DNA of 61,759 bases, taken from Roseiflexaceae bacterium (GTDB lineage: Bacteria > Chloroflexota > Chloroflexia > Chloroflexales > Roseiflexaceae). Shown here piece after piece: positions 17,261-34,237 of the stretch. The notes beneath the pieces are model-generated. The model saw only the letters and a program-made list of their open reading frames with translations, was not told the origin of the DNA and did not search any database. Both the position numbers and the translations under genes were made by a program. The number at the start of each line of letters is the position of its first letter. Positions within the stretch are counted from its first letter, which is position 1. Where the stretch lies: assembly GCA_014381165.1 (NCBI GenBank), contig JACMIM010000574.1, positions 1-61,759 of the forward strand. Reading direction: 5' to 3'.

Positions 17261-18040
17261 TCAGCGCTGGTGTCGCCGACGTGCCCGCAACTCTGCGTCG
17301 GCTGCCGTATCGCTCTGCTCCGCATAGCGCAGCGTCGTCTGGATGTGCTTGTGACCGAGGCGCTTACGAATCGTTGCTAAGCTCACCCCCGCTTGTACCA
17401 GTGCCGTCGCGTGGCTGTGCCGCAGCTGGTGTAGCGTACACACGACCCCTGCAGTCGCGCAGTATCTCGCCCAACGTTCCTGCAGCGTCTGATACTGCAG
17501 CAGCAGCCCATCGCCATTCTTGAGCGGCCGAAAGAGCGGGCCGTGGCGCGCCTGCATCGCCTTGAGGTAGCGTCGCAGCAGTCGCACGAGTTGCGGGGCG
17601 TCCAGCAGCACGGTGCGGCGCTGGCCTCGCTTGCCAAGCACGTGTAGGTGCTCATCGTCCGGCGTCAGATCGAGATCGTCAACCTCGAGCTGTAGGGCCT
17701 CGCTGATGCGCAGCCCGGTCTCTGCGAGCATCCGAAACAGCAGTTGGTCGCGGAGTTGGTCGCGGGGGATCGTCGCCAAGATCGCGTCAATCGCAGCCCG
17801 TGTCACCCCCCGCGGTGCTGGCTCGGGCACCTGCACCCGGTCCAGCTTCACGAGCGGATTCGCCACCAGCAGGTCGTGGCGGACCGCCCACGTTAGAAAG
17901 CTGTTCAGGGCCGCAGCCGTACGCGCTCGACTTGCCGCGCTCCGGCCATCGCGACGCGCAAGCGCCGCACGCAGTGTGTCGACGGAGATCGTGGCGACCG
18001 TACCCTCGTGGCAAGCGCTGAGGTGGCGCATCGATCGCAC
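17261..18040 (-). CDS. Tyrosine recombinase (XerC/D-like integrase)
   Basis: The R box (GLRISEAL), HQLRHSHAT, and GHKHIQTTLRY with the catalytic Tyr are all present. Confidence 0.8.
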   Translation of the reverse strand: MRSMRHLSACHEGTVATISVDTLRAALARRDGRSAASRARTAAALNSFLTWAVRHDLLVANPLVKLDRVQVPEPAPRGVTRAAIDAILATIPRDQLRDQLLFRMLAETGLRISEALQLEVDDLDLTPDDEHLHVLGKRGQRRTVLLDAPQLVRLLRRYLKAMQARHGPLFRPLKNGDGLLLQYQTLQERWARYCATAGVVCTLHQLRHSHATALVQAGVSLATIRKRLGHKHIQTTLRYAEQSDTAADAELRARRRHQR

Positions 18041-18656
18041 AGCCGACTACGGTCCGCTCAACGCCCTGGCAGTCAATCGCATCCAACCACAGCTGATAGT
18101 TGAGCATTGGGACGACCTGCTCCGGATCGCGGGTTCGCTGACAATGGGAGCATGCCAGGTGGAGGGGCTGATGCGGACGCTTCAGCGCGGCGATCGCCCG
18201 ACGAAGCTGGCGCGGGCGCTGCAAGAGTTGGGGCGGATCATCAAAACGCTGTACCTGCTGAACTACCTCAACGACGAGGCGTACCGCCGGCGGATCTTGA
18301 CCCAGCTCAACCGCGGCGAGGGGCGGCACCGCTTAGCACGGGCGGTGTTCTATGGGCAGCGGGGGGAGCTGCGACAGCGCTATCGCGAGGGGCAAGAGGA
18401 CCAGTTGCACGCACTGGGGCTGGTGGTGAACGCGATCATCGTGTGGAACACGATGTATATGGCGCGAGCACTGGAGCACATCGGCCAAACCGGGCAGCCA
18501 GTGAACGATGCCGACGTGGCACGACTGGCGCCACTCAGGTCAGCACACCTTAACGTGCTAGGGCGCTACACCTTCGCGCTCCATGAGCCGATCGCCCGGG
18601 GCGAGTGGCGACCGTTACGCACAGCTGAACGGATCAGTCTGCCTAGCGAAGAGTAG
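18031..18656 (+). pseudogene. C-terminal fragment of a Tn3-family transposase
   Basis: WDDLLRIAGSL, ELGRIIKTLYLLNYLNDEAYRRRILTQLNRGEGRHRLARAVF and VVNAIIVWNTMYM are Tn3 TnpA C-terminal motifs. Homology starts exactly where the divergent recombinase gene begins. Confidence 0.7.
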
Positions 18657-18744
18657 GCGCTACACGCTCTCGCGTATTTGTATTTTCTGTTCCATTTCTA
18701 CCGGGAGCCCTTATACAAACCACCGTGTTGACGCCGCGTTTGAT

Positions 18745-19791
18745 ATGCACGATAATAGAGTTTATCGTGCATGTAAGAAAAACCGACGCTGCGAGGTGAT
18801 CTTGAATAGTCAACAAACGCAGCCTGCTGGCCAGCTCGTTCCCGCTGACCCGGCAGATCGCGCGGAGCTTCAACGTACTACAGCGGCAGCCCAGGCCTAT
18901 ATCGCTGAATCGTTAGCGCCAAACACGATCAAAGCCTATCAGTCCGATTGGGCCGACTTCACCGCGTGGTGCGCCAAGCATCAGCGCGAACCACTCCCGG
19001 CAATCCCCCACACGGTGATCCTCTACCTCTCGCACTTGGCCCAGCTCGGGCGGAAGCCCAGTACGATCGAGCGACGGTGTGCGAGCATCAAGCAAGCGCA
19101 CCGTTTCGCGCATCACCCTTCGCCCACCGACACAGTCGAGGTCGAGCAGGCCCTGCGCGGTATTCGCCGATCGCTGAAGGTGGCCCCAACCCAGAAGGCC
19201 GCCGCTGTGACCGAGATCGTGCGGGCCATGATCGAGGCGCTGCCGGATAAGCCGAGTTCGCTGCGCGATAAGGCGCTGCTGCTGATTGGGTTCGTGGGCG
19301 CGTTTCGACGGAGTGAGTTGGTCAGCCTTGACGTGCGTGACATAACCTTTACAAATGATGGTCTCGCCATCAACCTGCGGCAGTCGAAGACCGACCAGGA
19401 GGGCGCGGGCTATCTCAAAGGATTACCATACGGGTCGAACCCTGATACCTGCCCGGTACGCACCCTGCACGCCTGGCTTGATGCTGGACATATCACCGAG
19501 GGGCCGATCTTCCGCTCGTTCTCACGCCGGGGTGTGCTGCAAGCGAAGCGGCTGGAGGATGGCGAGGTCGCACGCATTATCAAGCGTGCGGCGCGGGCAG
19601 CTGGCCTTGATGCGCAGCAGTTCAGTGGTCACAGTCTACGCGCCGGCTTCGTGACCGCTGCCGCTGCGGCAGGTGAGCCGGAGTACCGTATCATGGAGCA
19701 GACTGGCCACACGTCCTCGGCGACCGTGCGGCGATACATGCGCCGGGGCAATCTCTTTCGCAACAACTCGGCCAGCAAGATTGGACTGTAA
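18745..19791 (+). CDS. Tyrosine recombinase
   Basis: TIKAYQSDWADFTAWC forms the core-binding domain. FRRSELVSL, HSLRAGFVT and GHTSSATVRRY form the catalytic set. The start is uncertain (ATG 18745). Confidence 0.75.
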   Translation: MHDNRVYRACKKNRRCEVILNSQQTQPAGQLVPADPADRAELQRTTAAAQAYIAESLAPNTIKAYQSDWADFTAWCAKHQREPLPAIPHTVILYLSHLAQLGRKPSTIERRCASIKQAHRFAHHPSPTDTVEVEQALRGIRRSLKVAPTQKAAAVTEIVRAMIEALPDKPSSLRDKALLLIGFVGAFRRSELVSLDVRDITFTNDGLAINLRQSKTDQEGAGYLKGLPYGSNPDTCPVRTLHAWLDAGHITEGPIFRSFSRRGVLQAKRLEDGEVARIIKRAARAAGLDAQQFSGHSLRAGFVTAAAAAGEPEYRIMEQTGHTSSATVRRYMRRGNLFRNNSASKIGL

Positions 19792-19846: not shown

Positions 19847-20470
19847 TCATGCGACGAGCATTCGGTGTTTGCGGTTCACAGACTGATCCGCTGCTGCTAA
19901 CCATTGCTCCAAAGCGTCGAAGGTGTCATTCGCCATACCGATGATCGCGTCATCGCTGGCGCATGTCGCAGCATATGCATTGACCTGCATGCAAAAAGCT
20001 TTCCACATAGAGCCGACCGCCGGGCCGTAGCTTCCGTAAAATGCTGTGCCACTTTCTGCTGTTAGGCCAAAGTGTGCTGCCATCTGTCGGGTGATGAGTT
20101 GCCCGCCTAACGTGGCACCTTCCAGCACATACATACAGCCAAGGGCCTGTGGAAAGTCGTCAAGTGTCGGCAGGTCGGCGCATGTCGGCGGCTCCGTCAT
20201 GCCATCATTCGCATATCCAAGCGCCACGAGATCGTGCCGCAGCAGCGAGGTTTTGCAGCGTTGCTCAAAGTCTAACCCAATCTGCGCCCATTCATGCGTA
20301 AAGCGCGCGAGTTGTTGTTCCATCGGCTGGTAGAAGCCAGCCATTGTTGCAAGAAAGGCAGTATATTCCGCAAGGGAAAGCTGCGGGGTGCTCAACTGGA
20401 TGACACGCGGATGCGCTTGGAGCCGCATGTGGGCCGCACGGGTGGCTTGCTTGAGTTGCTCAAGAATCAT
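19847..20470 (-). CDS. Biliverdin-producing heme oxygenase (BphO-like)
   Basis: LKQATRAAHMRL at the N-terminus, LLRHDLVALG and ALGCMYVLEGATLGG are heme-oxygenase family motifs. An AAAGGA SD sequence is present. The gene starts 28 nt after the gvpK stop with no hairpin between. Confidence 0.7.
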   Translation of the reverse strand: MILEQLKQATRAAHMRLQAHPRVIQLSTPQLSLAEYTAFLATMAGFYQPMEQQLARFTHEWAQIGLDFEQRCKTSLLRHDLVALGYANDGMTEPPTCADLPTLDDFPQALGCMYVLEGATLGGQLITRQMAAHFGLTAESGTAFYGSYGPAVGSMWKAFCMQVNAYAATCASDDAIIGMANDTFDALEQWLAAADQSVNRKHRMLVA

Positions 20471-20498: not shown

Positions 20499-20873
20499 TT
20501 ATTCGAGCAGCCGACCTAGCGGACCGAGGTCGAGATTGAGATCGGCATCGCTTAATCCAAATGTCTGCTTGAGCTCGTCCATACGTGTTGCGAGCTTCAT
20601 AAACGTTTGCCCCAACCGCTCGATCTCTTCGTCGTTGAGCGAGCCGCCCTCCATGCGCCGTAGCGCCTGCCGTTCGAGCAGCTGGCGCAGCAGCTCAATC
20701 AGCGCTAGCACCAGCCGCGACAGCCCGCGCTCGACCTGCTCGGGGTCGATGGCGATACGCTGAGGTAGCCCGGCGCTCGCACGCTCGATCTCGGCGGCAA
20801 AGGCATCTAAGTTGTCGGGCGTGTGGAGCAGCCGGGAAGGCCCGTTGGGCGTTTCGGTGTTAGATACGTTCAT
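20499..20873 (-). CDS. gvpK: Gas vesicle protein GvpK
   Basis: PEQVERGLSRLVLALIELLRQLLERQALRRMEGGSLNDEEIERLG matches the GvpK core. Confidence 0.8.
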   Translation of the reverse strand: MNVSNTETPNGPSRLLHTPDNLDAFAAEIERASAGLPQRIAIDPEQVERGLSRLVLALIELLRQLLERQALRRMEGGSLNDEEIERLGQTFMKLATRMDELKQTFGLSDADLNLDLGPLGRLLE

Positions 20874-21624
20874 TCGCGACCTCGGCGATCAATGATTGGG
20901 CGCGCTCGCTAGCAGCGCCAGTGGAAACAAAATGGTATGGCGGCCAGGGGCCAGTGCCAAGGAGTTGCAGCGCCGGGTAGGCCGTGCCGAGCGCAGCACA
21001 GCGCCGCTGAAAGCCGGCAACTGCCGCTCGCTCGACCAAGTAGGCCCCAGCGAGGATCATCTGCTCGGTGACTAACACGCGACACACGCTTTCGTCCGCG
21101 CCCACGGCCAGCGCCGCGTGCAACTCCTCGGCCAGCGCGCGCGCGTGCTGGCGCTGCGTTTGCGTGCGCTGCTCCTCGGCCAGCCGCACCAACATATAAT
21201 TACGTCCCGCGCTCGCTGCGTTATCACCCTGGTGCGGCTGCTCGCTGCCCGCGCCGCGCGCTGCGTCAGCTCGCTCCGGATTACTCATTAACACCCGCAC
21301 GCCCAGTTCGACACGCCCGCCAACGCGCACAAGATCGGCCTCGAGTTCCGCCGCATGGCTATACAACGCACCGCAGACCGCCGCATGATCTGGCAGAAGT
21401 GTGCCGAAGCGCGCCGGCAGCGTCGCACGGTCGTCCATCAGTGCCTCGATCACTGCCTCGTGCTGCCACAGGTATTCCGCTGTCGGCTGCGGTGCCGCAC
21501 CAGGATGAACACTTACCACTGCAGCCAGCGCACCACAGGGTAGCGCAAATGGTACCACGCCGTCGAGCCCACGTAGCATGGGCAGCGGCGCATCAGCGTG
21601 GATGATAGCGTAGAGATACAGCAC
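20860..21624 (-). CDS. Gas vesicle protein GvpL/GvpF family
   Basis: The N-terminus LYLYAII..., the segment LPARFGTL and the C-terminal TGPWPPYHF are GvpL/F hallmarks. Confidence 0.75.
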   Translation of the reverse strand: MLYLYAIIHADAPLPMLRGLDGVVPFALPCGALAAVVSVHPGAAPQPTAEYLWQHEAVIEALMDDRATLPARFGTLLPDHAAVCGALYSHAAELEADLVRVGGRVELGVRVLMSNPERADAARGAGSEQPHQGDNAASAGRNYMLVRLAEEQRTQTQRQHARALAEELHAALAVGADESVCRVLVTEQMILAGAYLVERAAVAGFQRRCAALGTAYPALQLLGTGPWPPYHFVSTGAASERAQSLIAEVANERI

Positions 21625-21830
21625 TATGATACGCTTGGCTCGCGTGGGGCGAGCATATTAGTGCGTTCGGCCGTTTCCACCGAGGTTAACAGCACACGCA
21701 ACCCAAGGTAGAGCAGATCGACATCGGCAACCGAGATGGTTAGATCGCCCCAAAGCACGACACCCTTGTTGAGCGCCCGGTCGAGGAGTTCCAGCAGGCT
21801 CATATCCTGCTTGTTCCATTGCTCATTCAT
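21624..21830 (-). CDS. Small GvpA-family protein (GvpS/GvpM/GvpJ-like)
   Basis: LLELLDRALNKGVVLWGDLTISVADVDLLYLGLRVLLTSVETAE matches the GvpA-family core. Confidence 0.75.
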   Translation of the reverse strand: MNEQWNKQDMSLLELLDRALNKGVVLWGDLTISVADVDLLYLGLRVLLTSVETAERTNMLAPREPSVS

Positions 21831-22663
21831 ACGGGGTCCTTTGTGTCGAGGGTTGCAAAGCTATATGGCGGCCAGGGCCCGGCCAGCGCAATTTGTACAC
21901 CGCGTGACGCACTTGCCGCCTGAAGCGAGGCGAGTGTGTTCATAAACTGCGCATGGCGCTGGTCATCCACGAGATACGCCGCGTGCAGGATGATCTCCGC
22001 CGGGTGGTCGGAGCGCGGCATAGGCGGGCTGCTGGTCGCGGCACGCGCCATTGCTGCAAGCTCGGCATGGCAGGTCAGCGCATATTCTGTGCCAAAGGCG
22101 GCGGCGCGCTGGTCGGCGCTTTGAGCCAGCCGCTTCTGCAACAGGTAGGCGGCCCCACTGCTGGCCCGCGCGATCGCCGCGCGTTGTGGCGCGAAGAATT
22201 CCGCATCATCTGCCAGCCACTTCGCCAGCGCGTGCTGATCGTAGAACAGCTTGACGCCCCACTCAGTCGCGCCTGCCACACGCCGCAATGCCGCGTCTAG
22301 CGCATCGTACTGCGCTGCCAGCATGTGCTGTACGCGCTCGGCGTGGTGGTACACCGTGCAGAAGGCGCACGGTAGCGTGGCATAATCGTGCGCCAATCTG
22401 GCGAGCGTGGTCTGGTGTTCCAGCGCCAACGCCTGCACCCAAGCTGGATCGTGCAGGTACTCGGGCAGCGCTGCCGTGCTGAACTGCGCCAGCGGCACTC
22501 GGCGCGTCACCGCCAGCAAATCGCGATAGCCAATCGCCACAGTGCTTGCCGGCAGGGCGGGCGGCGTATCCGCGCTCCGACGGACGACTGCATAGACATA
22601 GATCGCCTGCCCGTCTACCCCTGCATCGCCTACGCCGGTAGGCCGAGCAAGCAGGGTGTTCAC
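21827..22663 (-). CDS. Gas vesicle protein GvpL/GvpF family
   Basis: IYVYAVV..., LPCAFCTV and AGPWPPYSF are present. GTG 22663 overlaps the upstream TGA (GTGA), so I preferred it to the track start 22720. Confidence 0.7.
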   Translation of the reverse strand: MNTLLARPTGVGDAGVDGQAIYVYAVVRRSADTPPALPASTVAIGYRDLLAVTRRVPLAQFSTAALPEYLHDPAWVQALALEHQTTLARLAHDYATLPCAFCTVYHHAERVQHMLAAQYDALDAALRRVAGATEWGVKLFYDQHALAKWLADDAEFFAPQRAAIARASSGAAYLLQKRLAQSADQRAAAFGTEYALTCHAELAAMARAATSSPPMPRSDHPAEIILHAAYLVDDQRHAQFMNTLASLQAASASRGVQIALAGPWPPYSFATLDTKDPV

Positions 22664-23748
22664 AGGCACTCCGCCACGACGAGATCGACTAGCAGTGTGT
22701 TGGCTACGGCATCCCAACACAGGTCTATCGCCTCGCTGCTGCTGTGCTGTGTGTACATACCAAGGAGTTGCGCGGCCTCGGCCAGAGCGGCCATGCGTAT
22801 GGCGGCGTCGGGATCGTGCGGGTTGTGGTCGGGGTGCAGCCGTCCCGCGAGTGCCCGATAACGCTGGCGAATCGCGGCGGCGGTTGTCGCCAGCGGCAGG
22901 TCGAGCAGCTGCCGAGCCGCGTCGATTTGGCTGGCATCGGGCAATTGTATTTCAACGCTGGCGAAGCTGTAGGGTGGCAGCGGTCCAACACAGCGAAAAT
23001 GCAGCGGCACGCCGCCGTCCTCGCCGCTGAAACGTTCGTCGAGCGCGTCAAGGCAGTGGTCGAGCGCGTCTCGTTCAGCGGCATCGAGCAGCAGCGCCAC
23101 ATTCAGTACCATCCGGTCGTCCATCAGCGAATTGCTGATCACCCGTGGCGTCAGCGCACGCAGCGGCGCGAGCAACTGTTCGCTCAACGCCAAGCGCCGC
23201 CGGTCGAACGCTGCCTTGACAACCTGCCCTAGCCCAGCTCGCGCGGCGATCGTGTCTTCGTGCGGTTGCGCGGCGTGCGCTTTCAGCATGGCGATCTCCG
23301 GCGTGGCGGCGAGCTGTTGAAACACCAACATTGGATCCCACAGAACCACAACCTCGACCTGCTGGCGCGCCCCCAGCCGCTCGAGCGCAGTGCCGAAGCG
23401 CCCTGCATGCTGCTCCAACAGACGCTCGACCTGCGACTCACCGGCCAGAACTGTGCCAAATTTGACAGGCAGCACAGCGAAATCGCGTTGTACGTTTTCG
23501 ATCACTTGCTGGTGCGCGTGCAGGTGTTCAAGCGCAGTTATGCGATCGAGCTGAAGAAAGGTGGAACGCTCGGCTGGGCTGACGAATGCCGCCAGCGCGC
23601 CGTGGTTGACTGTGTACACATCTTCGCCGGCAACTCCTGGCAGCTCAAGAACCAGGTGGTCGCTGGTGGAGATGATGGCGTAAACGTACAGCCCATTCGT
23701 CGAGTGCTCGGTCGAAATGGTGCTTTCCAATCTGGAAATTGTTATCAT
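22660..23748 (-). CDS. GvpL/GvpF-family protein fused to a C-terminal J domain
   Basis: The N-terminal part has LYVYAII..., LPVKFGTV and VGPLPPYSF. The C-terminus AIRQRYRALAGRLHPDHNPHDPDAAIRMAALAEAAQLL carries HPD (codons 22828-22836). ATG 23748 is preceded by GAGGAA. Confidence 0.7.
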   Translation of the reverse strand: MITISRLESTISTEHSTNGLYVYAIISTSDHLVLELPGVAGEDVYTVNHGALAAFVSPAERSTFLQLDRITALEHLHAHQQVIENVQRDFAVLPVKFGTVLAGESQVERLLEQHAGRFGTALERLGARQQVEVVVLWDPMLVFQQLAATPEIAMLKAHAAQPHEDTIAARAGLGQVVKAAFDRRRLALSEQLLAPLRALTPRVISNSLMDDRMVLNVALLLDAAERDALDHCLDALDERFSGEDGGVPLHFRCVGPLPPYSFASVEIQLPDASQIDAARQLLDLPLATTAAAIRQRYRALAGRLHPDHNPHDPDAAIRMAALAEAAQLLGMYTQHSSSEAIDLCWDAVANTLLVDLVVAECL

Positions 23749-25825
23749 TTGGTTCCTCGGAATACAGAGCGGTATGGGGCGCACGCATGCGAAGCTGTTC
23801 GCGGATGGCCGCCAGTGCCGCACTGCGACAAATTCCAGCGATATCGGCCCCCGCGCAGCCGTCGGTCGCCTCGGCCAGTACCGCGAGATCGACATCCGCG
23901 CTCAACGGCATCCGCCGCGTATGAACGCGCAGGATTTCAAGGCGGCCTGCGGCATCGGGCGGTGGTAGCTCGACCAGAAAATCAAAGCGCCCCGGGCGTA
24001 GCAGCGCTGGGTCGATCCGGTCGAGGCGGTTGGTCGCCGCTAGCACGATCACGCCCTTCAGCCCTTCGATGCCATCGAGTTCGGTCAAAAGTTGTCCGAC
24101 AATCCGTTCGGCAACCTGGTCGGTGCCGCCGCGTGGCGGTGCCAGTGCGTCAATCTCGTCGAAGAACAGAATACACGGCGCAACCTGCCGCGCCTTGCGA
24201 AAGATTTCGCGCACGCCGCGCTCGGATTCACCCACCCACTGGCTGAGCAATTGCGGCCCCTTCACCGAAATGAAGTTGGCTTCACTTTGGTGGGCCAGCG
24301 CCTTCGCCAATAGCGTTTTGCCGGTGCCGGGTGGGCCGTGCAGCAGGATGCCAGCAGGCGGGCGTATCCCAGCGTGGCTAAACATGTGTGGGTGGCGTAG
24401 CGGCCATTCAACGGTTTCAGTCAACAGTTGCTGCACCTTGGCCAGCCCACCCACATCGTCCCAGCCAACATCCGGCACGTCGGTTACGATCTCGCGTAGG
24501 GCCGATGGCTCGATGCTCGCGCGCGCCTCGGCGAAATCATCCGCCGAAACCTTCAGCGCCAGCAGCCGCTCGTCGGGAATGTGTGCCTGGGCAAAGTCGA
24601 TCTCTGGGATCAACCGCCGCAGCGCGCCCATTGCTGCCTCACGGCACAGCGCCGCCAGATCTGCGCCGACAAAGCCGTGCGCCCGCGCCGCCAGCTGCCC
24701 CAGGTCGACATCATGAGCCAAGGGCATTCCGCGCGTGTGGATTTCCAGAATTTCGCGCCGCCCAGCGTGATCGGGCACACCAATGCTGATTTCACGATCA
24801 AAGCGCCCTGGCCGGCGCAACGCCGGGTCGAGCGCATCGGGAATATTGGTCGCGGCGATCACGATCACATCGCCACGCTGCTCCAACCCATCCATCAGCG
24901 CCAGGAGCTGCGCCACAACACGCCGCTCGACCTGCTTCTCGCCGCTCAAGGCCTCGCGGCGCGGTGCGATCGCGTCGATCTCGTCGATAAAGATAATTGC
25001 TGGAGCTTTGCGGCGCGCTTCCTCGAAGATACTGCGAAGCTGCGCCTCGGATGCGCCATAGAACTTGTCGATAATCTCTGGCCCATTGATCGCCAGGAAA
25101 TGCGCGCTGGTTTCGCGGGCGACTGCGCGAGCGATCTGAGTTTTGCCGCAGCCAGGTGGGCCGTACAGCAACACGCCACGCGGCGGCGTGATGCCCAGCC
25201 GCTCGAACACCTGTGGGTAGCGCAATGGCAGTTCGATCATCTCGCGGATGCGGCGTAGCTCGCGCCGCAGCCCGCCAATGTCCTCATACGTCACGCCCGC
25301 GCGCCCTTGCGCTGCCTCGGTGGGCGCAAATTGGATCGTGGTTGCCTGCTCGATCAGCACCGCACCAACTGGTACCGTTTCCACAACGCGAAAGGTATAT
25401 GCACGGCTGCCGAACATGTTCACCCGCACCAGGTCGCCCGTCAGCACCGGGATACCGTCCAGCAGGCGTGCCAACGCCGGCGCGTGGGCGCTGGTGAAGC
25501 GCAGTTCCTCAGTTGCAGCCAACCGCAAAGTGTGGGCCGCCCGCACTACAGCCGGCTGCACGAGAACGCGCTCATCGAGCGCAACGCCGCTGTTTGTGCG
25601 CTGCATCCCATCCATCTGGATGATCTGCTGGTTGCGCTGCTCGGCGTGAGTTGGCATCACGCGCGCAATCGTCGCTCGCTTGCCGGCGATCTCGACAACA
25701 TCGCCGACACCGATACCCAGCCGCCGCGCGTCGTGCGGGTCAAGCCGCACGATCCCGCGCCCGACATCGCGTGGCAGTGCTTCGGTTACACGCAGCGTTA
25801 GCGTGGAGGGCTCAAGCGGCTTCAT
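23645..25825 (-). CDS. CDC48/p97-type double-AAA ATPase
   Basis: The N-domain begins LTLRVTEALPRDVGRGIVRLDP. There are two Walker A motifs (GPPGCGKT, GPPGTGKT) and two DEID Walker B motifs. The 3' end overlaps the next gene by about 100 nt. Confidence 0.85.
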   Translation of the reverse strand: MKPLEPSTLTLRVTEALPRDVGRGIVRLDPHDARRLGIGVGDVVEIAGKRATIARVMPTHAEQRNQQIIQMDGMQRTNSGVALDERVLVQPAVVRAAHTLRLAATEELRFTSAHAPALARLLDGIPVLTGDLVRVNMFGSRAYTFRVVETVPVGAVLIEQATTIQFAPTEAAQGRAGVTYEDIGGLRRELRRIREMIELPLRYPQVFERLGITPPRGVLLYGPPGCGKTQIARAVARETSAHFLAINGPEIIDKFYGASEAQLRSIFEEARRKAPAIIFIDEIDAIAPRREALSGEKQVERRVVAQLLALMDGLEQRGDVIVIAATNIPDALDPALRRPGRFDREISIGVPDHAGRREILEIHTRGMPLAHDVDLGQLAARAHGFVGADLAALCREAAMGALRRLIPEIDFAQAHIPDERLLALKVSADDFAEARASIEPSALREIVTDVPDVGWDDVGGLAKVQQLLTETVEWPLRHPHMFSHAGIRPPAGILLHGPPGTGKTLLAKALAHQSEANFISVKGPQLLSQWVGESERGVREIFRKARQVAPCILFFDEIDALAPPRGGTDQVAERIVGQLLTELDGIEGLKGVIVLAATNRLDRIDPALLRPGRFDFLVELPPPDAAGRLEILRVHTRRMPLSADVDLAVLAEATDGCAGADIAGICRSAALAAIREQLRMRAPHTALYSEEPNDNNFQIGKHHFDRALDEWAVRLRHHLHQRPPGS

Positions 25826-26147
25826 GCTGTTCGCTCGTCGTGATCAGGGCGGGTGCAAGCTCCAGGCGGCGCTCCAGCAAGTCAAGCCGTTCGCGCAGCA
25901 GCCGGTTTTCTTCTTCGATCTGGTGCGTACGGGTCGAAAGAAATGGGTCGCTTTCCCACCAGTTGATGCCCATCTCGCGCGCCTTATCTACCGAGGCGAT
26001 CAGCAACCGCACTTTGATGCTCAGCAATTCCACCTGCACAAGCGAAATCGTGATGTCGCCCGCGATGACAATGCCTTTGTCCAGCACCCGCTCGAGGATG
26101 TCGGCGAGATTCGCCCCTTGAACCGAGTGCTGCATGTTATTAGACAT
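25812..26147 (-). CDS. gvpJ: Gas vesicle protein GvpJ (GvpA family)
   Basis: LADILERVLDKGIVIAGDITISLVQVELLSIKVRLLIASVDKAREMGINWWESDP matches GvpJ. Confidence 0.8.
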   Translation of the reverse strand: MSNNMQHSVQGANLADILERVLDKGIVIAGDITISLVQVELLSIKVRLLIASVDKAREMGINWWESDPFLSTRTHQIEEENRLLRERLDLLERRLELAPALITTSEQHEAA

Positions 26148-26185
26148 TCGTGTCTCCTGCGCTGCTATTCGCGCTTGTTATTGAG

Positions 26186-26488
26186 CTATACCTGGCCACG
26201 ATGGTAGCGGCCAGTGCGCTCGTAGGTTGCGATATCGCCGGCTCCGTCGAGCGTAACCTCATAGGTGCCAATCACATCGCTGGTGTCGGGGATGCGCTTC
26301 ATCTCGACCATCTCGATTGTGACGGTCCAGCCCTGCTCGTTGCGTCGAATGCCTGAAACCGTATCGGTCTTGAAGCCGGTCAGCTCGCTAATTTGTGACT
26401 TCGTGCGTTGTACAATCTCAATGCTGTTCATGCTGGTACTTTCTATATTGTGTGGCACATGGGTGCTTATATGCGGGCGGCTTGCCAC
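26186..26488 (-). CDS. gvpO: Gas vesicle protein GvpO
   Basis: ISELTGFKTDTVSGIRRNEQGWTVTIEMVEMKRIPDTSDVIGTYEVTLDGAGDIATYERTGRYHRGQ follows the GvpO pattern. The start is ambiguous: GTG 26488 overlaps gvpG, and ATG 26431 is the alternative. Confidence 0.65.
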   Translation of the reverse strand: MASRPHISTHVPHNIESTSMNSIEIVQRTKSQISELTGFKTDTVSGIRRNEQGWTVTIEMVEMKRIPDTSDVIGTYEVTLDGAGDIATYERTGRYHRGQV

Positions 26489-26718
26489 GCGCGGATGGTG
26501 CGCAGCTGCACGAGCAAGGCATCCTCGCCGATCTGATACTCTTCCTCGCTGATCTCGCCCATCTCCAATCGTAATTCTAGCTCGACCATCTGGCCGCGCA
26601 CCGCAGGCTCGTTGTACAGCTCCTGCTCGGCCTGATCATTGATCGTTTCTGCCAACCACAACACGCCATCCAACGGCGCGGTAATCGGCAGCAGCAAAAG
26701 TTTTATTAGGAGGCCCAT
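26467..26718 (-). CDS. gvpG: Gas vesicle protein GvpG
   Basis: MGLLIKLLLLPITAPLDGVLWLAETINDQAEQELYNE...EISEEEY is GvpG-like throughout. Confidence 0.75.
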   Translation of the reverse strand: MGLLIKLLLLPITAPLDGVLWLAETINDQAEQELYNEPAVRGQMVELELRLEMGEISEEEYQIGEDALLVQLRTIRAWQAARI

Positions 26719-26728
26719 TTTTACGTTC

Positions 26729-27472
26729 CTAAATTGTCACATTAACAAAATTATACGGTGGAACATTGCCCACATACTTGAAGATCATGCGCTGCCCCAT
26801 CTCGGCGTCGAGCTGCTGGATAATGGCGTCGAAGGCCGACTCCGCCGCGCGCTCGATCAAGAAGGCCACGTTCAACACCATGCGCTCGGTGATAGCTGCA
26901 TTCTGCCGCGTTTCTTTGGCCAGCGGGCGCAAATGCTCCAAAATATACTCGGCGTCAGCTGCACGGCGGCGCTGCATCTCGGCCTCGACAAGCTGGCCAA
27001 GCTGAATGCGCGCGTAGTAGGTTTCGGCGGCGGGGCGGCTGGACACCTTGGTGTGCAACTCACGAATCGGCGCGCTGGAGGCGACGATCTCCTGCATCAC
27101 CTGATCCTCGCGCCACAGCACCTTCAGCCCTAGCTCGATCCGATCTTCGAACTGGTGGAGTAGGGTGTCCAGCTCTTTGTAGCGCGGCGTAAGCACGTTG
27201 CGCTTGATCTTTTCAGGGCTGGAGGCAATCGTGCCAAAGCGCACCGGCAGGATGGGCGCGGCCCGCATTACTTCATCCAGTACCGCAGCGTGGCAGAGCA
27301 TATGGCGGCGGGTGTGTTCATACTCCTGCTCTGGTGAATCGCTGACCACCGCCGCCAGGTCATCATAATGCACGGTGTACACAGCGTCGCCGCGCCCGCC
27401 AATGCCAGCGGTGGTAAAGATGCGTGGCTCTGCGCTGCGCATAATGCAGTACACATACGTTCCCGCTGTCAT
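26729..27472 (-). CDS. gvpF: Gas vesicle protein GvpF
   Basis: YVYCIM..., LPVRFGTI, LGLKVLW and VGNVPPYNF are present. Confidence 0.8.
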   Translation of the reverse strand: MTAGTYVYCIMRSAEPRIFTTAGIGGRGDAVYTVHYDDLAAVVSDSPEQEYEHTRRHMLCHAAVLDEVMRAAPILPVRFGTIASSPEKIKRNVLTPRYKELDTLLHQFEDRIELGLKVLWREDQVMQEIVASSAPIRELHTKVSSRPAAETYYARIQLGQLVEAEMQRRRAADAEYILEHLRPLAKETRQNAAITERMVLNVAFLIERAAESAFDAIIQQLDAEMGQRMIFKYVGNVPPYNFVNVTI

Positions 27473-27978
27473 GATGCCACCTTGCGCAGCCGAATTTCCA
27501 GGATGCCATTGTGGTATTGTTGCACAAACACCTGCTCGACCTCGCCAGGCAGCGCGAGTTCGCGGCTGAAGCGCCGCGCGCCGATTGTTTCAAGCGCCAG
27601 CACAGCACCACGTAGCGTCACGCGAATGTCGGCTTCGTCCACGCCAGGCAGCTCGACTACAACGACCAACTCGCCATCCTCGTCGAATAGATCCAGGAGC
27701 GGCTCACGCGCCTCGGCGACCTCTGGCCCAGTGGCGGTTGCGCGCAGGTTGCCAAAATGCTCGACCTGCGGGACGCCGCCAATGCCACTGCGGATCGAAA
27801 CTCCATACACACCTTGCGCGCGTTCGCCCAAGCCCTTGATCGTGAATGAGCCGTTCTGATTGATCCCATCCTGCTCGGAAAGCGCGCTGATTCGCTCGAC
27901 CAACTCACCCAGTCCTTTGAGCAACCCACCGAAGCCTTGTTCGGCGGTGCTGGGCGGTATATTTCGGCGCGGTGCCAT
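27469..27978 (-). CDS. Hsp20/alpha-crystallin family protein (GvpH-like position)
   Basis: The alpha-crystallin core is VVVVELPGVDEADIRVTLRGAVLALE...LPGEVEQVFVQQYHNGILEIRL. Confidence 0.75.
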   Translation of the reverse strand: MAPRRNIPPSTAEQGFGGLLKGLGELVERISALSEQDGINQNGSFTIKGLGERAQGVYGVSIRSGIGGVPQVEHFGNLRATATGPEVAEAREPLLDLFDEDGELVVVVELPGVDEADIRVTLRGAVLALETIGARRFSRELALPGEVEQVFVQQYHNGILEIRLRKVAS

Positions 27979-27988
27979 AGCGTACTCC

Positions 27989-28300
27989 TTAATATTCTAG
28001 CGCGAATGTTCCCCAACCAGCTGCGTCCAAGCGCTCTGGCGGGGCTGGTTGCGCGGGTGGGGCGGCGTGTAAACCAAGCACTGGCTGCAACTGTGCCAGC
28101 CGCGCATCGACCAGCGCCAGGCGCTGCTCGGTACGCTGTTGATTCGCCTGCCAAATCTCCAACTCACGCTGAAGCCTGGTCTTTTCTTGTTCCAGCCGCG
28201 CGAGATCGCTGATCGCCTGTTGGCGGCTTTGCGGCAACCCCCGGCGCTGCGCACGCTGCCCAGTCGCGATATCGCGCAATCCACGTCGTTTGATCATCAC
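27989..28300 (-). CDS. Small coiled-coil protein (possibly GvpV-like)
   Basis: ISDLARLEQEKTRLQRELEIWQANQQRTEQRLALVDARLAQLQ is heptad-like. The gene sits between gvpN and hsp20. The family call is from memory only. Confidence 0.45.
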   Translation of the reverse strand: MMIKRRGLRDIATGQRAQRRGLPQSRQQAISDLARLEQEKTRLQRELEIWQANQQRTEQRLALVDARLAQLQPVLGLHAAPPAQPAPPERLDAAGWGTFALEY

Positions 28301-28344
28301 ACGGCCTTTCCTTCAGAGCTACAGAAACAGCGAACAGGTTGCCG

Positions 28345-29283
28345 CTACCGTCCAGAATGGCTGGTGATAATTGAAAGCAGCAGCTCGCGCTGTTGGGCGC
28401 GGCGCTCACGGTTGGCACTGCTGGCGGCGGTCTTCGACTCCAGCACATCCAAGCAAACCTGCACAAAGCGCGTGTCGTGGCGGGCCGGCGTGTAGCCCTG
28501 CTGTGCGGAAACGCGGGCGATCATGATGCTGGCGCGCAGCGTCGGGGTCTGGTCGTAGCACTGCGCGTCGCGGAAATCGCGCACAATGTCGGCGACATTG
28601 GCAGCCTGCTCGACAGCCATTCCGGACTGAGTGGCGACAATCTCGATCTCGGTTGCACGGTCGTAGTAATCGAGGTCGATTGTCACCAGCCGGTCGCTCA
28701 ACGCATCCTGTGCGGCATGAACACCGGCGTACTCTTGTGGGTTACTGGTGAAGATCACGCGAAACTCGGGGTGAACCTTTATGTATGATTCCTGCTGACC
28801 GCCACGGGGCAGCACCAGCACGCCTTCTTCGAGTACCGTCAGCAGCACATTGTTCGCTTCGGGCCGCGAGCGCGTGAATTCGTCATAGACCAGCGTAAAG
28901 CCTTGGCGGCAGGCTACGGTCAGGCGGTTATCTACCCAGCGTTGCACCGCATCTTCTTCGTATTTGAGTACCGAATGGATGAAGCGATCCTCCACGCGGC
29001 GGTAGCGGTAGCCATTCTGACCACCAACTAAATCGGAAGTCGACAGTTCTTCGTCGCCAACCATGAGCATCACTGGGCGCTCTAGTCGCGCGGCGACATG
29101 CATGGCGAGGGTCGTTTTGCCGGTGCCAGCCGGGCCACGAAAATGCATTGGGTAGCCAGCTTGAAGATAGGCCATTGCCCGCTCGGCCAGCGCCTGCACG
29201 GCGGAGGTTTCAACAAACGTAGCACTCGGGCGAATGGCTAACACGGTGCGTGGCTCAGCGCTGCGTGGAAGTGCGGTCGTCAT
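28345..29283 (-). CDS. gvpN: Gas vesicle protein GvpN (AAA+ MoxR/CbbQ-like ATPase)
   Basis: The Walker A is FRGPAGTGKTTLAMHVA and the Walker B region is LVYDEFTRS. The ATG overlaps the upstream stop (ATGA). Confidence 0.85.
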   Translation of the reverse strand: MTTALPRSAEPRTVLAIRPSATFVETSAVQALAERAMAYLQAGYPMHFRGPAGTGKTTLAMHVAARLERPVMLMVGDEELSTSDLVGGQNGYRYRRVEDRFIHSVLKYEEDAVQRWVDNRLTVACRQGFTLVYDEFTRSRPEANNVLLTVLEEGVLVLPRGGQQESYIKVHPEFRVIFTSNPQEYAGVHAAQDALSDRLVTIDLDYYDRATEIEIVATQSGMAVEQAANVADIVRDFRDAQCYDQTPTLRASIMIARVSAQQGYTPARHDTRFVQVCLDVLESKTAASSANRERRAQQRELLLSIITSHSGR

Positions 29284-30416
29284 CGGGCTTCCTTGCTGCC
29301 ATCGCCCCGCGCCTGGCGGCGGCGTGCGGGCGCGGGCGTCTGTGGTGCAGGAACGTGCGGCGCAACAGGCTCAACCAAGCTTCGCCCGACACTGGCTATA
29401 GCGCTCAGTAATTGTGCTACGTCGGCGTAGAGCGCCGCGATATACGTACCATCGGGGTGGTGCGGAGCGGGTCGTGTGTCCACCACTGCTGATAGCTCGG
29501 TCGCCAGTGCGCCGACGTTGTGCTGTAAATCTTCCACACAGCTGAACATAGTTTGGCGTTGCTCGTCATCCAGCGTCGATTGCACAGCGGAAAGCATGTT
29601 GAGAAAGGGTTCGACGTTGCGGCGAATCCCCGCCACGTAAGCACTGAGATGCTCGCGCTGCTCAACGCCGAGCGCTGTGCCCTCGGTATCAAGTGCCTTG
29701 AGAATGGCAACCCGCGCGAGTTTGGCATAGGCGTAGATACCGGCCTGGTTGAAGCTTTGCGTTTCGATGATCTCAGCCGGTTGAGCAGGCGGCGCACTGG
29801 TGTCGGGCAGCACAGGCACAATCAACGGCAGATCGTGCAGCACTGCACCTGCGTCGGCAGGTGTGGCGAATGCTGGACGATACAGTGCTGGCAACCCGGC
29901 GCGCGTTTCGGCCAGCCACGCGCTTGTTTGTTGCGCCAGGCTTGACCGCACCGCATCCAGCTGCTGGCGCTGTGCTATGGCACGGGCATCCAGGGCCACG
30001 CCGAGATCGGCGAGCTGTGCGGCGGTTGCTTGGCGCAGTGCATCCACGGCGCTGCTGCGCTGCTGGTGCTGGTCATTGGCTTGGGCGCTGCGCTGAGTGG
30101 CAAATAGTTGCAGCAGGCGGGCAGTTGCGCACCGCTGTTGTTCGGCGGCAGCGTACCGAGCAGCACGCTGTTCGGTGGCGTCGAGCTGCCGCGCATCACG
30201 TAATACAATCATCTGCTCAGCGACATGCCGCGCAAGGTCGGCGCGTGCTACCGCGCGCACCGCACTGGCCACCTGAGCTTGCATTGTTCGGCGCGTAGCG
30301 ACCTCGGCCAGCATGTGTGCTGTCGCCGCGTAGGACGTATCGAGCGCTACAGTTCGCGCGCTGCGTTGGTTCACGATCTGCGCTTGCAGTGCCCGCCAGT
30401 CATCGGTGTAAGCCAT
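29280..30416 (-). CDS. Ala/Gln/Arg-rich hypothetical protein occupying the gvpC position
   Basis: It lies between gvpA and gvpN and is translationally coupled to gvpN. The N-terminal ~190 aa are helical and low in complexity (AQ/AR-rich). ATG 30416 is preceded by AGGGA. Confidence 0.55.
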   Translation of the reverse strand: MAYTDDWRALQAQIVNQRSARTVALDTSYAATAHMLAEVATRRTMQAQVASAVRAVARADLARHVAEQMIVLRDARQLDATEQRAARYAAAEQQRCATARLLQLFATQRSAQANDQHQQRSSAVDALRQATAAQLADLGVALDARAIAQRQQLDAVRSSLAQQTSAWLAETRAGLPALYRPAFATPADAGAVLHDLPLIVPVLPDTSAPPAQPAEIIETQSFNQAGIYAYAKLARVAILKALDTEGTALGVEQREHLSAYVAGIRRNVEPFLNMLSAVQSTLDDEQRQTMFSCVEDLQHNVGALATELSAVVDTRPAPHHPDGTYIAALYADVAQLLSAIASVGRSLVEPVAPHVPAPQTPAPARRRQARGDGSKEAR

Positions 30417-30510
30417 ATTATTTCCCTGTGTACAAAAGGAGCGAAATTTCTTTTGCTCCATCTATTCACGCATACTTGAACGGTTTGTTCACGTTCACTC
30501 GACAGGTGAT

Positions 30511-30556
30511 GAGAGGGACGGTTCAGCAAGCGAAACACTTGCTGAACGCCCCTCTC
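30511..30556 (-). terminator. Strong hairpin immediately downstream of gvpA (candidate partial terminator/attenuator)
   Basis: The sequence is GAGAGGG-ACG-GTTCAGCAAG-CGAAACA-CTTGCTGAAC-GC-CCCTCTC. It lies 29 nt after the gvpA stop. No clear U-tract follows. Confidence 0.4.
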
Positions 30557-30584
30557 AATCGCGCACGCTTGGATTCAGTCGAAT

Positions 30585-30800
30585 CTAGGCAGGCGAAACG
30601 GAAGCCGTGGTGAGGCCGATCGCCTCAGCGTACTTTAGGTAGGTATCCACGCCTGCGATGACAACCCGTGCCTCAATCGCCAGCAACTCGATTCCAACCA
30701 GCGAAACGCGTACCCAGGCATCAATAACCAATCCTTTGTCGAGGATGCGGTCCACAACCTCGGCGAGGCTGCTCGATGCGTTCACTTTCTCAACGGCCAT
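30585..30800 (-). CDS. gvpA: Major gas vesicle structural protein GvpA
   Basis: [55 protein letters not shown] is near-canonical GvpA. An AAGGAG SD sequence lies 8 nt upstream. Confidence 0.9.
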
Positions 30801-31000: not shown

Positions 31001-31723
31001 TTAGTCCGTGCGCAGTGTCACAAGCATATATCCATGCCGCGGAACGGTGCGGATGTACACCGGCGCATCGGGAGCAGGTGCGAGCTTGGCGCGCAAATTG
31101 CGGATGTGCCAGCGCACCAAGCTCGGGTCGGTGACCTCTGGCGCATAGCCCCAAACGTGGGTGAGCAAGTGAGCGCTGGAAAAAACCTTGTCGGGGTTTG
31201 CCATCATGAAGCGCAACAGATCGAACTCAGCTGGTGTTAACGCGATCGACTTCTGGTCGATCTGCACCGTGCGAGTGTCGAGATCGAGCGCCAATGCGCC
31301 AACCACAAGGGCTGCGTGGGGTGGATTCAGCTTGGCGGGCGGCGCGGGCACCACCCGTTCACGGCGCAGCAACGCCCGCACTCGTGCTTTCAATTCGCGC
31401 AGGTCGAACGGCTTGGCGAGATAATCGTCGCCGCCTTCCTCCAACCCAGAGATTCGATCTTCGACCGCACTTTGCATGGAAAGAAACAGTACAGGCACTG
31501 CTGCCAAACCCGGATCGCGCCGGATCTGCCGGCAGAAGGCCATTCCGTCCATCTCCGGCATGGCGACATCAAGAATCACAAGGTCGGGACGATGGGCGCG
31601 CGCCAACCTGAGACCCACTGCACCATTGGCAGCGGTGCTAACCTCATACCCTTCGTCTTGGAGGCTGTAGCGAACAGCCCAGATTAAATCGGGTTCATCG
31701 TCGACGACAAGAATATGTGGCAT
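31001..31723 (-). CDS. OmpR-family response regulator
   Basis: The receiver has ILVVDDEPD and LVILDVAMPEMDG. The winged-helix output has LTPAEFDLLRFMMANPDKVFS...VRWHIRNLRAKL...IRTVPRHGY. Confidence 0.85.
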   Translation of the reverse strand: MPHILVVDDEPDLIWAVRYSLQDEGYEVSTAANGAVGLRLARAHRPDLVILDVAMPEMDGMAFCRQIRRDPGLAAVPVLFLSMQSAVEDRISGLEEGGDDYLAKPFDLRELKARVRALLRRERVVPAPPAKLNPPHAALVVGALALDLDTRTVQIDQKSIALTPAEFDLLRFMMANPDKVFSSAHLLTHVWGYAPEVTDPSLVRWHIRNLRAKLAPAPDAPVYIRTVPRHGYMLVTLRTD

Positions 31724-31735
31724 GTGGGCAATCCC

Positions 31736-32149
31736 CTAGATCAGGTGTACCATGCTATGGTTGGTGTTACGGGCGGCAGTCTGGCCTGCAATCGCTCGCA
31801 TTTCGCGCAGATTAAATGGCTTGGGTAGGAAGATGGTCAGTCGGCCTTCTTGAAGACCAGCAGCGGCCAGTTCGTCCTCACCGTGGCGGCTACCGGAGAT
31901 CAGCACAATCGCTGTTTCAGGGCGGCGCTGGCGTATCTGCGCGGCCACGTCAATGCCGCGCGCATCAGGCAACAGTGAATCGACGAATACCAGCGCGTGG
32001 TGAGTTTCATGCCACAAACGTAATGCTTCCAGGCCCAAACCTGTTGTGGTTACGGCATAGCCCAATGGCCGCAGCACGCTTTCGAAAAGCCAGCAGATAG
32101 CTGGTTCGTCGTCCACTACGAGAATACTCAGGGGTTGTTCAGGCATCAC
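31736..32149 (-). CDS. Single-domain (CheY-like) response regulator
   Basis: ILVVDDEPA, ALVFVDSLLPDARG (phospho-Asp present) and FLPKPF are present. Confidence 0.8.
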   Translation of the reverse strand: MMPEQPLSILVVDDEPAICWLFESVLRPLGYAVTTTGLGLEALRLWHETHHALVFVDSLLPDARGIDVAAQIRQRRPETAIVLISGSRHGEDELAAAGLQEGRLTIFLPKPFNLREMRAIAGQTAARNTNHSMVHLI

Positions 32150-33638: not shown

Positions 33639-33670
33639 AGCTAACTCCCGCCATGCCAAAAGGCACCTAT

Positions 33671-34237
33671 CTATGCGTTGTCCTGCGCCGCTTGCTGACG
33701 CGGGCTGGTCCACGGCACATCTGGTAGACCGGCGCGGGCATTGGCGGCGCGTGCCAGCACAAAGCAAAGGTCGGATAACCGGTTGAGATACACCAGCACC
33801 TGCGAATTGACCGTTTCCTCGCGCGCGAGTGCAACACACCAGCGCTCGGCGCGGCGGCAGACGGTGCGGGCGAGGTGTAAATGCGCGGCGCTCAGGCTGC
33901 CGCCCGGCAAAATGAACTGGCGCAGTGGCTCTAGCTCGTGCTCCAGCATATCGATCGCCGTTTCCAGCGTCGATATCTCGGCCTCACCGACACGCGGAAT
34001 GTTGGCCGCCTCGCCAGGTGTCGCGAGATCGGCACCGACCACAAACAGCTGATCCTGAATCTGTGCCACCAGCGCATCAAGCCCAGCCTCCAGGCCACTG
34101 GCACGGGCTACACCAAGCACTGCGTTGGCTTCATCCACCGCACCATATGCTTGCACGCGCAAGGCATCTTTTCCGACGCGCTGCCCACCCCACAAACCAG
34201 TCTCCCCCAGATCGCCAGTTTTTGTGTAGATTTTCAT
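33671..34237 (-). CDS. PduO-type ATP:cob(I)alamin adenosyltransferase
   Basis: MKIYTKTGDLGETGLWGGQRVGKDALRVQAYGAVDEANA and FILPGGS...AHLHLARTVCRRAER are family signatures. Confidence 0.8.
   Translation of the reverse strand: MKIYTKTGDLGETGLWGGQRVGKDALRVQAYGAVDEANAVLGVARASGLEAGLDALVAQIQDQLFVVGADLATPGEAANIPRVGEAEISTLETAIDMLEHELEPLRQFILPGGSLSAAHLHLARTVCRRAERWCVALAREETVNSQVLVYLNRLSDLCFVLARAANARAGLPDVPWTSPRQQAAQDNA

Follow-up and report, generated by a model that had tools for sequence, protein, structure and literature searches.

A conserved C-terminal J domain on a GvpF/L-family protein of bacterial gas vesicle gene clusters

Introduction

Proteins of the GvpF/L family from haloarchaea and Bacillus bind GvpA-family and accessory Gvp proteins and are needed for gas vesicle formation, with GvpF having been proposed as a transient chaperone of GvpA2 and GvpL as a scaffold for GvpS, GvpK, and GvpJ at nucleation (PMC11445434). 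The proteotoxic stress that GvpA imposes sets a limit to heterologous expression (PMC12848028), and most gas vesicle gene (gvp) clusters fail to assemble in Escherichia coli or mammalian cells, chaperone capacity being a suspected limit for acoustic-reporter-gene engineering (PMC10344784, PMC12848028). In this work we analyzed a stretch of 61,759 nucleotides from a Roseiflexaceae bacterium (assembly GCA_014381165.1, contig JACMIM010000574.1, positions 1 to 61,759; hereafter the window), whose gvp operon encodes a GvpF/L paralog with a J domain behind its GvpF/L body. We designate the gene gvpL::J and propose that its product probably recruits Hsp70 to gas vesicle assembly.

The GvpF/GvpL proteins of Microcystis (4QSG) and Anabaena (6L5D) share with the gvpL::J product a common fold over residues 19-263 (template-modelling (TM) score 0.75-0.80), the signature motifs of the family, and a place in the operon beside gvpG, gvpJ, gvpK, and gvpS. 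Whereas characterized GvpF/GvpL proteins end 5-16 residues past the PPYSF motif, the window protein adds ~95 residues, comprising the J domain and a tail, and the gvpL::J proteins form a clade of their own among the GvpF/L paralogs.

Class C J proteins that direct Hsp70 to a single site or client (for example HscB, which serves IscU, as well as DjlA, auxilin, Pam18, and Sec63) have in common with gvpL::J an HPD-bearing J domain joined to a targeting domain, likewise without a G/F region, zinc finger, or C-terminal client-binding domains. HscB travels with its own Hsp70, HscA, as some relatives of gvpL::J do with a cluster-encoded Hsp70. Unlike these proteins, gvpL::J has a GvpF/L fold as its targeting domain, its J domain is C-terminal and has no helix IV, a conserved tail strand pins that domain at both ends according to structural modelling, and its co-chaperone activity is a prediction. 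A further parallel is the system of small heat-shock protein (sHsp), DnaK/DnaJ, and ClpB, as the gvp cluster also pairs an sHsp, a J protein (joined in some relatives by an Hsp70), and a double-ring AAA+ unfoldase. The AAA+ protein of the gvp cluster is, however, Cdc48/VAT-like and not ClpB, the genes lie in an organelle-building operon, and any cooperation among the products would be deduced from gene context.

Results and Discussion

Domain Structure of the gvpL::J Protein

The gvpL::J coding sequence occupies 22660..23748 on the minus strand, from an ATG at 23748 to a TGA stop at 22662-22660, and encodes a protein of 362 residues. Its GvpL/GvpF domain (residues 19-263; 22960..23694, minus strand) matched Pfam PF06386 over profile positions 1-244 of 245 (expectation value (E) 6.5e-52, 177.4 bits against a cut-off of 23.6). 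An AlphaFold2 (AF2) model of the full protein, built on 30 homologs, had a mean predicted local distance difference test score (pLDDT) of 91.9 and a predicted TM score (pTM) of 0.83, and showed the two-domain alpha+beta fold of GvpF, with Foldseek matches to the GvpF crystal structures 6l5d_B (E 3.2e-13, TM score by target 0.80) and 4qsg (E 4.2e-13). Against the NCBIfam models the protein fell well short of the equivalog cut-offs for both GvpL (NF045778, residues 18-263, 64.3 bits against 200) and cyanobacterial GvpF (NF052351, 58.1 bits against 350), and by these sequence scores we regard it as a distinct paralog, equivalog of neither.

The J domain spans residues ~270-335 (22744..22941, minus strand), with helix I at 272-281, helix II at 290-304, and helix III at 315-334, as delimited from Pfam PF00226, the AF2 model, the superposed structure 5nro_B, and sequence matches in the PDB. 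The tripeptide His-Pro-Asp (HPD), seen in the translation and in the alignments at residues 305-307 (22828..22836, minus strand), lies in the loop between helices II and III. PF00226 matched residues 281-330 over profile positions 5-54 of 63 with an E of 7.3e-08, reaching 32.8 bits where the gathering cut-off is 27.8, and the C-terminal 86 residues scored 36.4 bits when searched alone. These 86 residues also matched solved J domains by sequence, namely 2ej7 (1.4e-5), Tid1, CSP, and E. coli DnaJ (1bqz, 6e-3). In Foldseek the model superposed on the J domain of DnaJ in its complex with DnaK (5nro_B) with a root-mean-square deviation of 1.1 Å over 53 columns, and dozens of further J domains were matched at a probability of 1.00. 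Helix II (IRQRYRALAGRL) is basic and forms an antiparallel hairpin with helix III. Helices I-III and the HPD loop superpose with those of E. coli DnaJ, a class A Hsp40, which has the G/F region, zinc finger, and C-terminal domains that the window protein lacks. Only the J segment matched the NCBIfam model for DnaJ (TIGR02349, 21.7 bits against a cut-off of 377). The predicted product is neither DnaJ proper (a class A/B Hsp40) nor a DnaJ ortholog, and its architecture places it among the class C (type III) J-domain proteins.

A conserved C-terminal tail (residues 338-362; 22663..22737, minus strand), which in the window reads IDLCWDAVANTLLVDLVVAECL and for which the family consensus is CSFxRExVExTLLIxIRRQE, is separated from the J domain by a variable linker and has been inherited jointly with it. 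In the full-length AF2 model the tail contains a confident beta strand at residues 353-358 (pLDDT 84-93). When the C-terminal 99 residues were modelled alone, the J helices retained a pLDDT of 93-97, while that of the tail dropped to 70-55 and the tail turned helical. From these models we infer that the tail strand folds back against the GvpF/L body and pins the J domain at both ends in a fixed orientation, which would fit the high pTM. A resemblance noticed by eye between 'EAVERTL' of the tail and 'EVVDRIL' of GvpA raised the idea that the tail mimics the N-terminal helix of GvpA as a pseudo-substrate. This was rejected as undetectable, since a hidden Markov model of 280 tails found no GvpA-family match among the 19,228 open reading frames (ORFs) of all loci.

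The first-pass annotation of this DNA, made from the sequence alone, had read the ORF as a normal GvpL/GvpF fold of ~270 residues ending in a J domain with its HPD at 22828-22836. The translation it quoted agrees exactly with ours, the GvpL/GvpF assignment is borne out by the Pfam and GvpF structure matches, and the DnaJ profile search that it had proposed as a check returned the above-threshold score given above. Profile, PDB sequence, and fold all agree on the J domain as well. What has to be amended is the position of that domain, which is not the end of the protein, the conserved tail of ~25 residues having been overlooked.

A Widespread Family with a Single Origin

A homolog search of 5.8 billion proteins gave 294 matches, and among the 120 matches listed every one had both Pfam domains and the HPD. 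The identities of those listed to the window protein were 42-49%, except for one 99%-identical copy from the Logan data set (P0001), which lies on a 4.3-kb contig and has an intact J domain. A few family members, from Chloroflexota metagenome-assembled genomes (MAGs), were already labelled 'DnaJ domain-containing protein' or 'GvpL/GvpF family gas vesicle protein'. When one genome per species was scanned, 371 relatives emerged, none of them more than 47% identical to the window protein, and the best 80 of the 371 were taken for a survey of loci. In 78 of these 80 the locus encodes a protein of 335-532 residues (most of 340-420) with the HPD ~290-390 residues in; the two exceptions were cut by a contig end or disrupted.

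Within the Chloroflexota the fusion was found in Anaerolineae, Chloroflexales (Ca. Chloroploca asiatica and mongolica, Oscillochloris sp.), Dehalococcoidia, Thermoflexales, and Ardenticatenaceae. Beyond that phylum it occurs in Planctomycetota, Desulfobacterota/Syntrophales, Verrucomicrobiota, Alphaproteobacteria (including a Hyphomicrobium MAG), and Thermoleophilia, and in MAGs of Rokubacteriota and Omnitrophota; save for a few enrichment cultures these relatives are MAG or metagenome contigs, and MAG taxon labels may carry binning errors. All 57 fusion proteins that were scanned singly, representing at least eight phylum-level groups, matched both GvpL_GvpF and DnaJ (best DnaJ E 1.2e-16). 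A second search seeded with a Desulfobacteraceae protein gave 506 matches, nearly all with both domains. A profile of the J domain plus tail, run against 1.84 billion representatives, matched end to end only at the C-termini of family proteins of ~330-400 residues, which make up at least 62 clusters at 50% identity under a strict motif, ~12 more with motif variants, and some fragments. The other matches of this profile were generic J domains, aligned over the J part only.

The HPD is invariant in both of our alignments, A1 of 30 sequences and A2 of 57. In a larger set of 295 sequences aligned on the HPD, the equivalent of DnaJ Tyr25 is Y in 96%, that of Arg22 is K or R in 94%, and that of Ile21 is I in 92%, with R, H, or W at the position of Lys26. 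Residues of this kind are the hallmark of J domains that activate Hsp70. The helix II consensus of the family, EIKRAYRRLA, can be compared with EIRKAYKRLA of E. coli DnaJ.

A neighbor-joining tree, a simple distance tree of 285 GvpF/L domains drawn from all loci, placed 94 of the 95 J-bearing proteins in one clade of 97 members; two of the three J-less leaves inside this clade are cut by contig ends. This grouping indicates that the fusion arose once and then travelled with the cluster. The first-pass annotation had regarded such a fusion as not known from the characterized gvp clusters (haloarchaeal, cyanobacterial, Bacillus, or Serratia) and had asked for a survey of GvpL/F homologs. Those characterized clusters do lack it, but with ~300 homologs in several phyla the survey shows that the fusion is by no means special to the window, there being hundreds of such proteins.

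Hsp70 Genes in Related Clusters

Full-length Hsp70 genes were found in 8 of 82 loci, all of which were examined by a signature scan and by BLAST. The eight belong to Planctomycetota, Desulfobacterota, and Chloroflexota (L045:15542-17404, L048:7262-9025, L053:17219-19009, L055:13858-15684, L057:11525-13234, L074:17186-19147, L075:16075-17961, and L077:14005-15594). Each gene shares the strand of its gvp cluster and is found at the 3' end of it. In seven of the eight it comes directly after the last gvpA/J/F-type gene, whereas in L057 two regulatory genes intervene, and an hsp20 gene follows in four of the eight. Among clusters with a gene order other than that of the window and a visible 3' end, 8 of 13 have the Hsp70. 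By a rough estimate, assuming 1-3 Hsp70 genes per genome, the chance of an Hsp70 gene lying within 10 kb of a given locus is below 1%, and 8 of 82, every one co-oriented with and abutting gvp genes, is far beyond that expectation.

The cluster Hsp70s match the Pfam HSP70 profile with E of 1e-174 to 1e-227, are 41-51% identical to E. coli DnaK, and keep the catalytic ATPase residues. Most score below the TIGR02350 equivalog cut-off for DnaK, as expected of divergent paralogs. The residues that contact J domains are also kept (R167 in 8/8, N170 in 7/8, and T173 and D393). The Pfam matches of the genes beside the cluster Hsp70s, which were inspected for GrpE or a second J protein, were Hsp20, GreA, response regulators, or nothing.

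Full-length, divergent Hsp70/DnaK-family genes at the 3' end of gvp clusters were also seen in L095 and L099. Just upstream of the Hsp70 genes of L053 and L057 lie genes for GvpA-like proteins of 336-379 residues, with a Gas_vesicle domain and a long C-terminal extension (L053:16141-17280 and L057:8920-9930).

Pairing with a Cdc48-Like AAA+ Gene and hsp20

The upstream neighbor of gvpL::J in the window (23645..25825, minus strand) encodes a double AAA+ ATPase with Pfam matches to CDC48_N, CDC48_2, and two AAA domains with lids. The protein is Cdc48/VAT-like: its N domain is a double-psi barrel, it lacks an M domain, and no HbYX end is obvious. A Cdc48-like gene stands directly upstream of the fusion in 56 of the 64 loci with enough upstream sequence, in overlapping or abutting frames, and this pairing, which the first-pass annotation had missed, holds across phyla despite reshuffled cluster order. 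(Synteny was read from stop-to-stop ORFs compared by BLAST with the window proteins, and gene boundaries are approximate.) In six loci the fusion directly follows gvpN instead of the Cdc48-like gene, and an Hsp70 gene is present in four of the six.

A gene for a small heat-shock protein (hsp20, Hsp20/GvpH-like; 27469..27978, minus strand) also belongs to the window operon; its product matched Pfam HSP20 at 21.7 bits (cut-off 20.8), with a weak GvpH match. Both hsp20 and the Cdc48-like gene are conserved in related gvp clusters. For a reciprocal survey we examined 80 metagenome loci (L084-L163) with relatives, from several phyla, 50-71% identical to the Cdc48-like protein. Nearly all are part of gvp clusters. 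Usually hsp20 immediately precedes the AAA+ gene and a GvpF/L gene follows it, the GvpF/L protein having a J domain in ~24 loci and none in ~23. Because the adjacency is equally common with and without a J domain, the gene orders indicate that Cdc48-GvpF/L is the older pairing, to which the J domain and tail were an addition in one paralog.

Proposed Function and Alternative Explanations

We consider it fairly likely, judging from sequence and gene context, that the gvpL::J product is a class C J-domain protein whose GvpF/L body would give client or site specificity and whose J domain would activate Hsp70 at that site, so that GvpA-family clients are kept assembly-competent with the sHsp and the Cdc48-like protein as companions. 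In line with what has been published on GvpF and GvpL, the body would bind GvpA-family proteins (GvpA, GvpJ, GvpS) or a GvpL-centered nucleation scaffold. The J domain would dock on ATP-bound Hsp70, presumably the housekeeping DnaK in the window organism and the cluster-encoded Hsp70 in some relatives, and docking would trigger ATP hydrolysis, upon which Hsp70 would clamp the hydrophobic, aggregation-prone client at the site of vesicle nucleation or extension. A client clamped in this way would stay competent for assembly, and the sHsp (as holdase), the Cdc48-like unfoldase, and gvpL::J with Hsp70 may together form a proteostasis module dedicated to gas vesicles. Recruitment of Hsp70 to the place where GvpF/L acts, which the first-pass annotation had proposed, gains support because the HPD and the basic and aromatic helix II residues are kept in ~300 homologs across phyla, and because eight related fusion-bearing gvp clusters embed a full-length Hsp70. 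The sequences suggest that many bacteria use Hsp70 to build gas vesicles.

Several observations weigh against this proposal. The window J domain is the lowest scorer of its family, an Ala replaces the family's helix III Tyr (of 'AYxLL'), and the window tail is degenerate and has lost its RRQE end. The AF2 model gives a long helix III followed by the tail and no helix IV, although helix IV is not part of the surface by which J domains contact Hsp70 and its absence is for that reason no argument against function. In the rigid model the tail or the body could occlude the HPD. Two representatives of the family have rare variants of the motif, QPD (P0265) and HPA (P0324); QPD is the classic inactivating change of HPD, and both members could be degenerate copies or sequencing errors. 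The Hsp70 signature and BLAST scans of the 61.7-kb window found no dnaK/Hsp70 gene within it, and none of 29 clusters with the window's gene order has an Hsp70 nearby, so that housekeeping DnaK has to be assumed as the partner in these cases. Beside the cluster Hsp70s, Pfam identified no GrpE-type exchange factor. The low score, the lost Tyr and RRQE end, the window without an Hsp70 gene, and the QPD and HPA variants would all suit a J domain that is a structural relic or architectural appendage, devoid of co-chaperone activity in the window organism. This we hold to be quite improbable, as the HPD and helix II residues are kept in hundreds of sequences from several phyla at an overall identity of 30-45%, the window J domain still scores above the Pfam curated cut-off, and the 99%-identical copy P0001 from another data set is intact. 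That two genes were joined by a frameshift or an assembly error is refuted by the recurrence of a single ORF of 340-420 residues in ~300 independent sequences (NCBI, JGI, ENA, Logan), and AF2 also models the protein as one compact body with its pTM of 0.83.

Two other roles for the J domain were weighed. In one, akin to that of auxilin, Hsp70 would act in release or recycling, by dismantling the GvpL-centered nucleation complex, by freeing the growing vesicle of GvpF/L, or by dissolving GvpA aggregates and collapsed vesicles for reuse, in this last case jointly with the sHsp and the Cdc48-like unfoldase. The set of sHsp, J/Hsp70, and AAA+ genes mirrors the sHsp-DnaK/J-ClpB disaggregation triad, the fusion follows the Cdc48-like gene in those 56 of 64 loci, a J domain that the model predicts to be rigid and doubly tethered would suit a machine of fixed geometry acting on an assembly, and GvpL has been described as a scaffold and not as the primary binder of GvpA (PMC11445434). 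The present data fit client delivery equally well, however, and in about half of the gvp clusters with Cdc48 the GvpF/L that follows it lacks a J domain, while in some J-bearing clusters the gene directly before the fusion is not Cdc48. As each occurs without the other as its neighbor, the J domain and Cdc48 are separable, and on balance we think a release or recycling role unlikely. In the other role the J domain would partner the Cdc48-like AAA+ protein instead of Hsp70, for instance by binding its N domain as an adaptor, in keeping with the very tight pairing of the two genes, whose overlapping or abutting frames are kept while clusters are shuffled across phyla. To our knowledge the HPD with the helix II signature, invariant here, is known only for Hsp70 activation. 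Moreover, Cdc48-GvpF/L adjacency is as common without the J domain (~23 loci) as with it (~24) among the 80 metagenome loci, on which ground we rejected an exclusive partnership with Cdc48, and L045, L048, L055, and L077 have the fusion and an Hsp70 gene with no Cdc48 directly upstream of the fusion. A partnership of this kind is very improbable.

Recruitment of Hsp70 by gvpL::J may be extended to a complete, dedicated, ATP-driven machine for assembly and recycling. In it the sHsp would hold GvpA-family proteins, the GvpL::J protein would position Hsp70 at the nascent vesicle, and the Cdc48-like AAA+ protein would replace ClpB as partner, giving a bacterial Hsp70-Cdc48 bi-chaperone and with it the long-sought ATP-dependent step by which GvpA is fed into the wall or extracted from it, with the tail strand gating the J domain until the body is loaded. 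We offer this extension as speculation and regard it as doubtful.

Novelty and Implications

Our literature search covered open-access full text, with subscription journals outside its scope, and found there no paper linking gas vesicles with J domains or describing the fusion, no description of Hsp70 genes encoded in gvp clusters, and, in the gas vesicle literature, no discussion of a Cdc48-like component. At the level of sequence the fusion is already public through automated annotation; its biological reading appears to be undescribed. A link to Hsp70 is not astonishing given that GvpF is already a suspected chaperone.

The fusion bears on how the extremely hydrophobic GvpA stays soluble and enters the growing vesicle, and on the role of the essential GvpF/L proteins. 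A conserved J domain on a GvpF/L paralog offers a concrete and testable link between gas vesicle assembly and the Hsp70 cycle, strengthened because Hsp70, sHsp, and Cdc48-like genes share clusters across many phyla. In practical terms, a dedicated Hsp70 system may be required by, or come along with, clusters of the gvpL::J type. To chaperone biology gvpL::J would add a new J-domain protein of class C whose client belongs to organelle assembly, and possibly a bacterial partnership of Hsp70 with Cdc48.

A 23-kb cluster from Desulfobacterium vacuolatum DSM 3385 (FWXY01000008:1268-24724) produced gas vesicles in E. coli at 30°C (PMC10344784, supplementary table). In size it resembles L053, a Desulfobacteraceae cluster that contains cdc48-like, gvpL::J, and hsp70 genes. 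No named D. vacuolatum protein was among the matches of the homolog search seeded from Desulfobacteraceae. If the D. vacuolatum cluster carries these three genes, it would be a ready experimental system.

Operon Setting and Neighboring Genes

The start codon of gvpL::J is preceded at 7 nt by GAGGA and falls within the Cdc48-like gene, whose 3' end overlaps gvpL::J by 104 nt. A longer ORF of 411 codons from an ATG at 23895 was disfavored by the N-termini of the homologs and by the ribosome-binding site before ATG 23748, and use of that start is unlikely on this sequence evidence. At the other end the gvpL::J stop overlaps the probable GTG start of gvpL2 (GTGA), which is most likely the start used. 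With its start overlapping the Cdc48-like gene and the GTGA overlap with gvpL2, gvpL::J sits in a tightly coupled operon.

As assigned by Pfam and gene order, the whole gvp operon extends over 20499..30800 on the minus strand, and gvpL::J is surrounded by gvpA, N, F, G, O, J, S, and K. All of its genes lie on that strand, beginning with gvpA (30585-30800), followed by orf393 (29280-30461), gvpN (28345-29283), orf103 (27989-28300), and hsp20. Next come gvpF (26729-27472), gvpG (26467-26718), gvpO (26186-26488), gvpJ (25812-26147), the Cdc48-like gene, and gvpL::J, and the operon continues with a second gvpL/F gene (gvpL2, 21827-22663), a gvpS/A-like gene (21624-21830), a third gvpF/L gene (gvpF3, 20860-21624), and gvpK (20499-20873) as the last gene. 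This gene order recurs in L081/L082 and many other loci. The two ORFs flanking gvpN have no Pfam match. The product of orf393 is Ala/Gln-rich and may be a GvpC-like outer protein, and the gene recurs in some Chloroflexales loci, while orf103 follows gvpN in most related clusters from several phyla.

Just upstream of gvpA (31004-33839, minus strand) are genes for an OmpR-type response regulator, a stand-alone receiver, and a PAS histidine kinase, which are candidate regulators of the gvp cluster. The genes directly beyond gvpK (17264-19788 and 19850-20470) are those for a heme oxygenase and two tyrosine recombinases (integrases), with a fragment of a Tn3-family transposase, and the cluster may border a mobile region; no tRNA gene was found in the 61.7-kb window. 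In a Chloroflexota metagenome locus a gene for a two-domain ArsA-type ATPase directly follows gvpL::J (L081:11118-13115), ArsA homologs in gvp clusters having been recorded in 2010 (PMC2963123).

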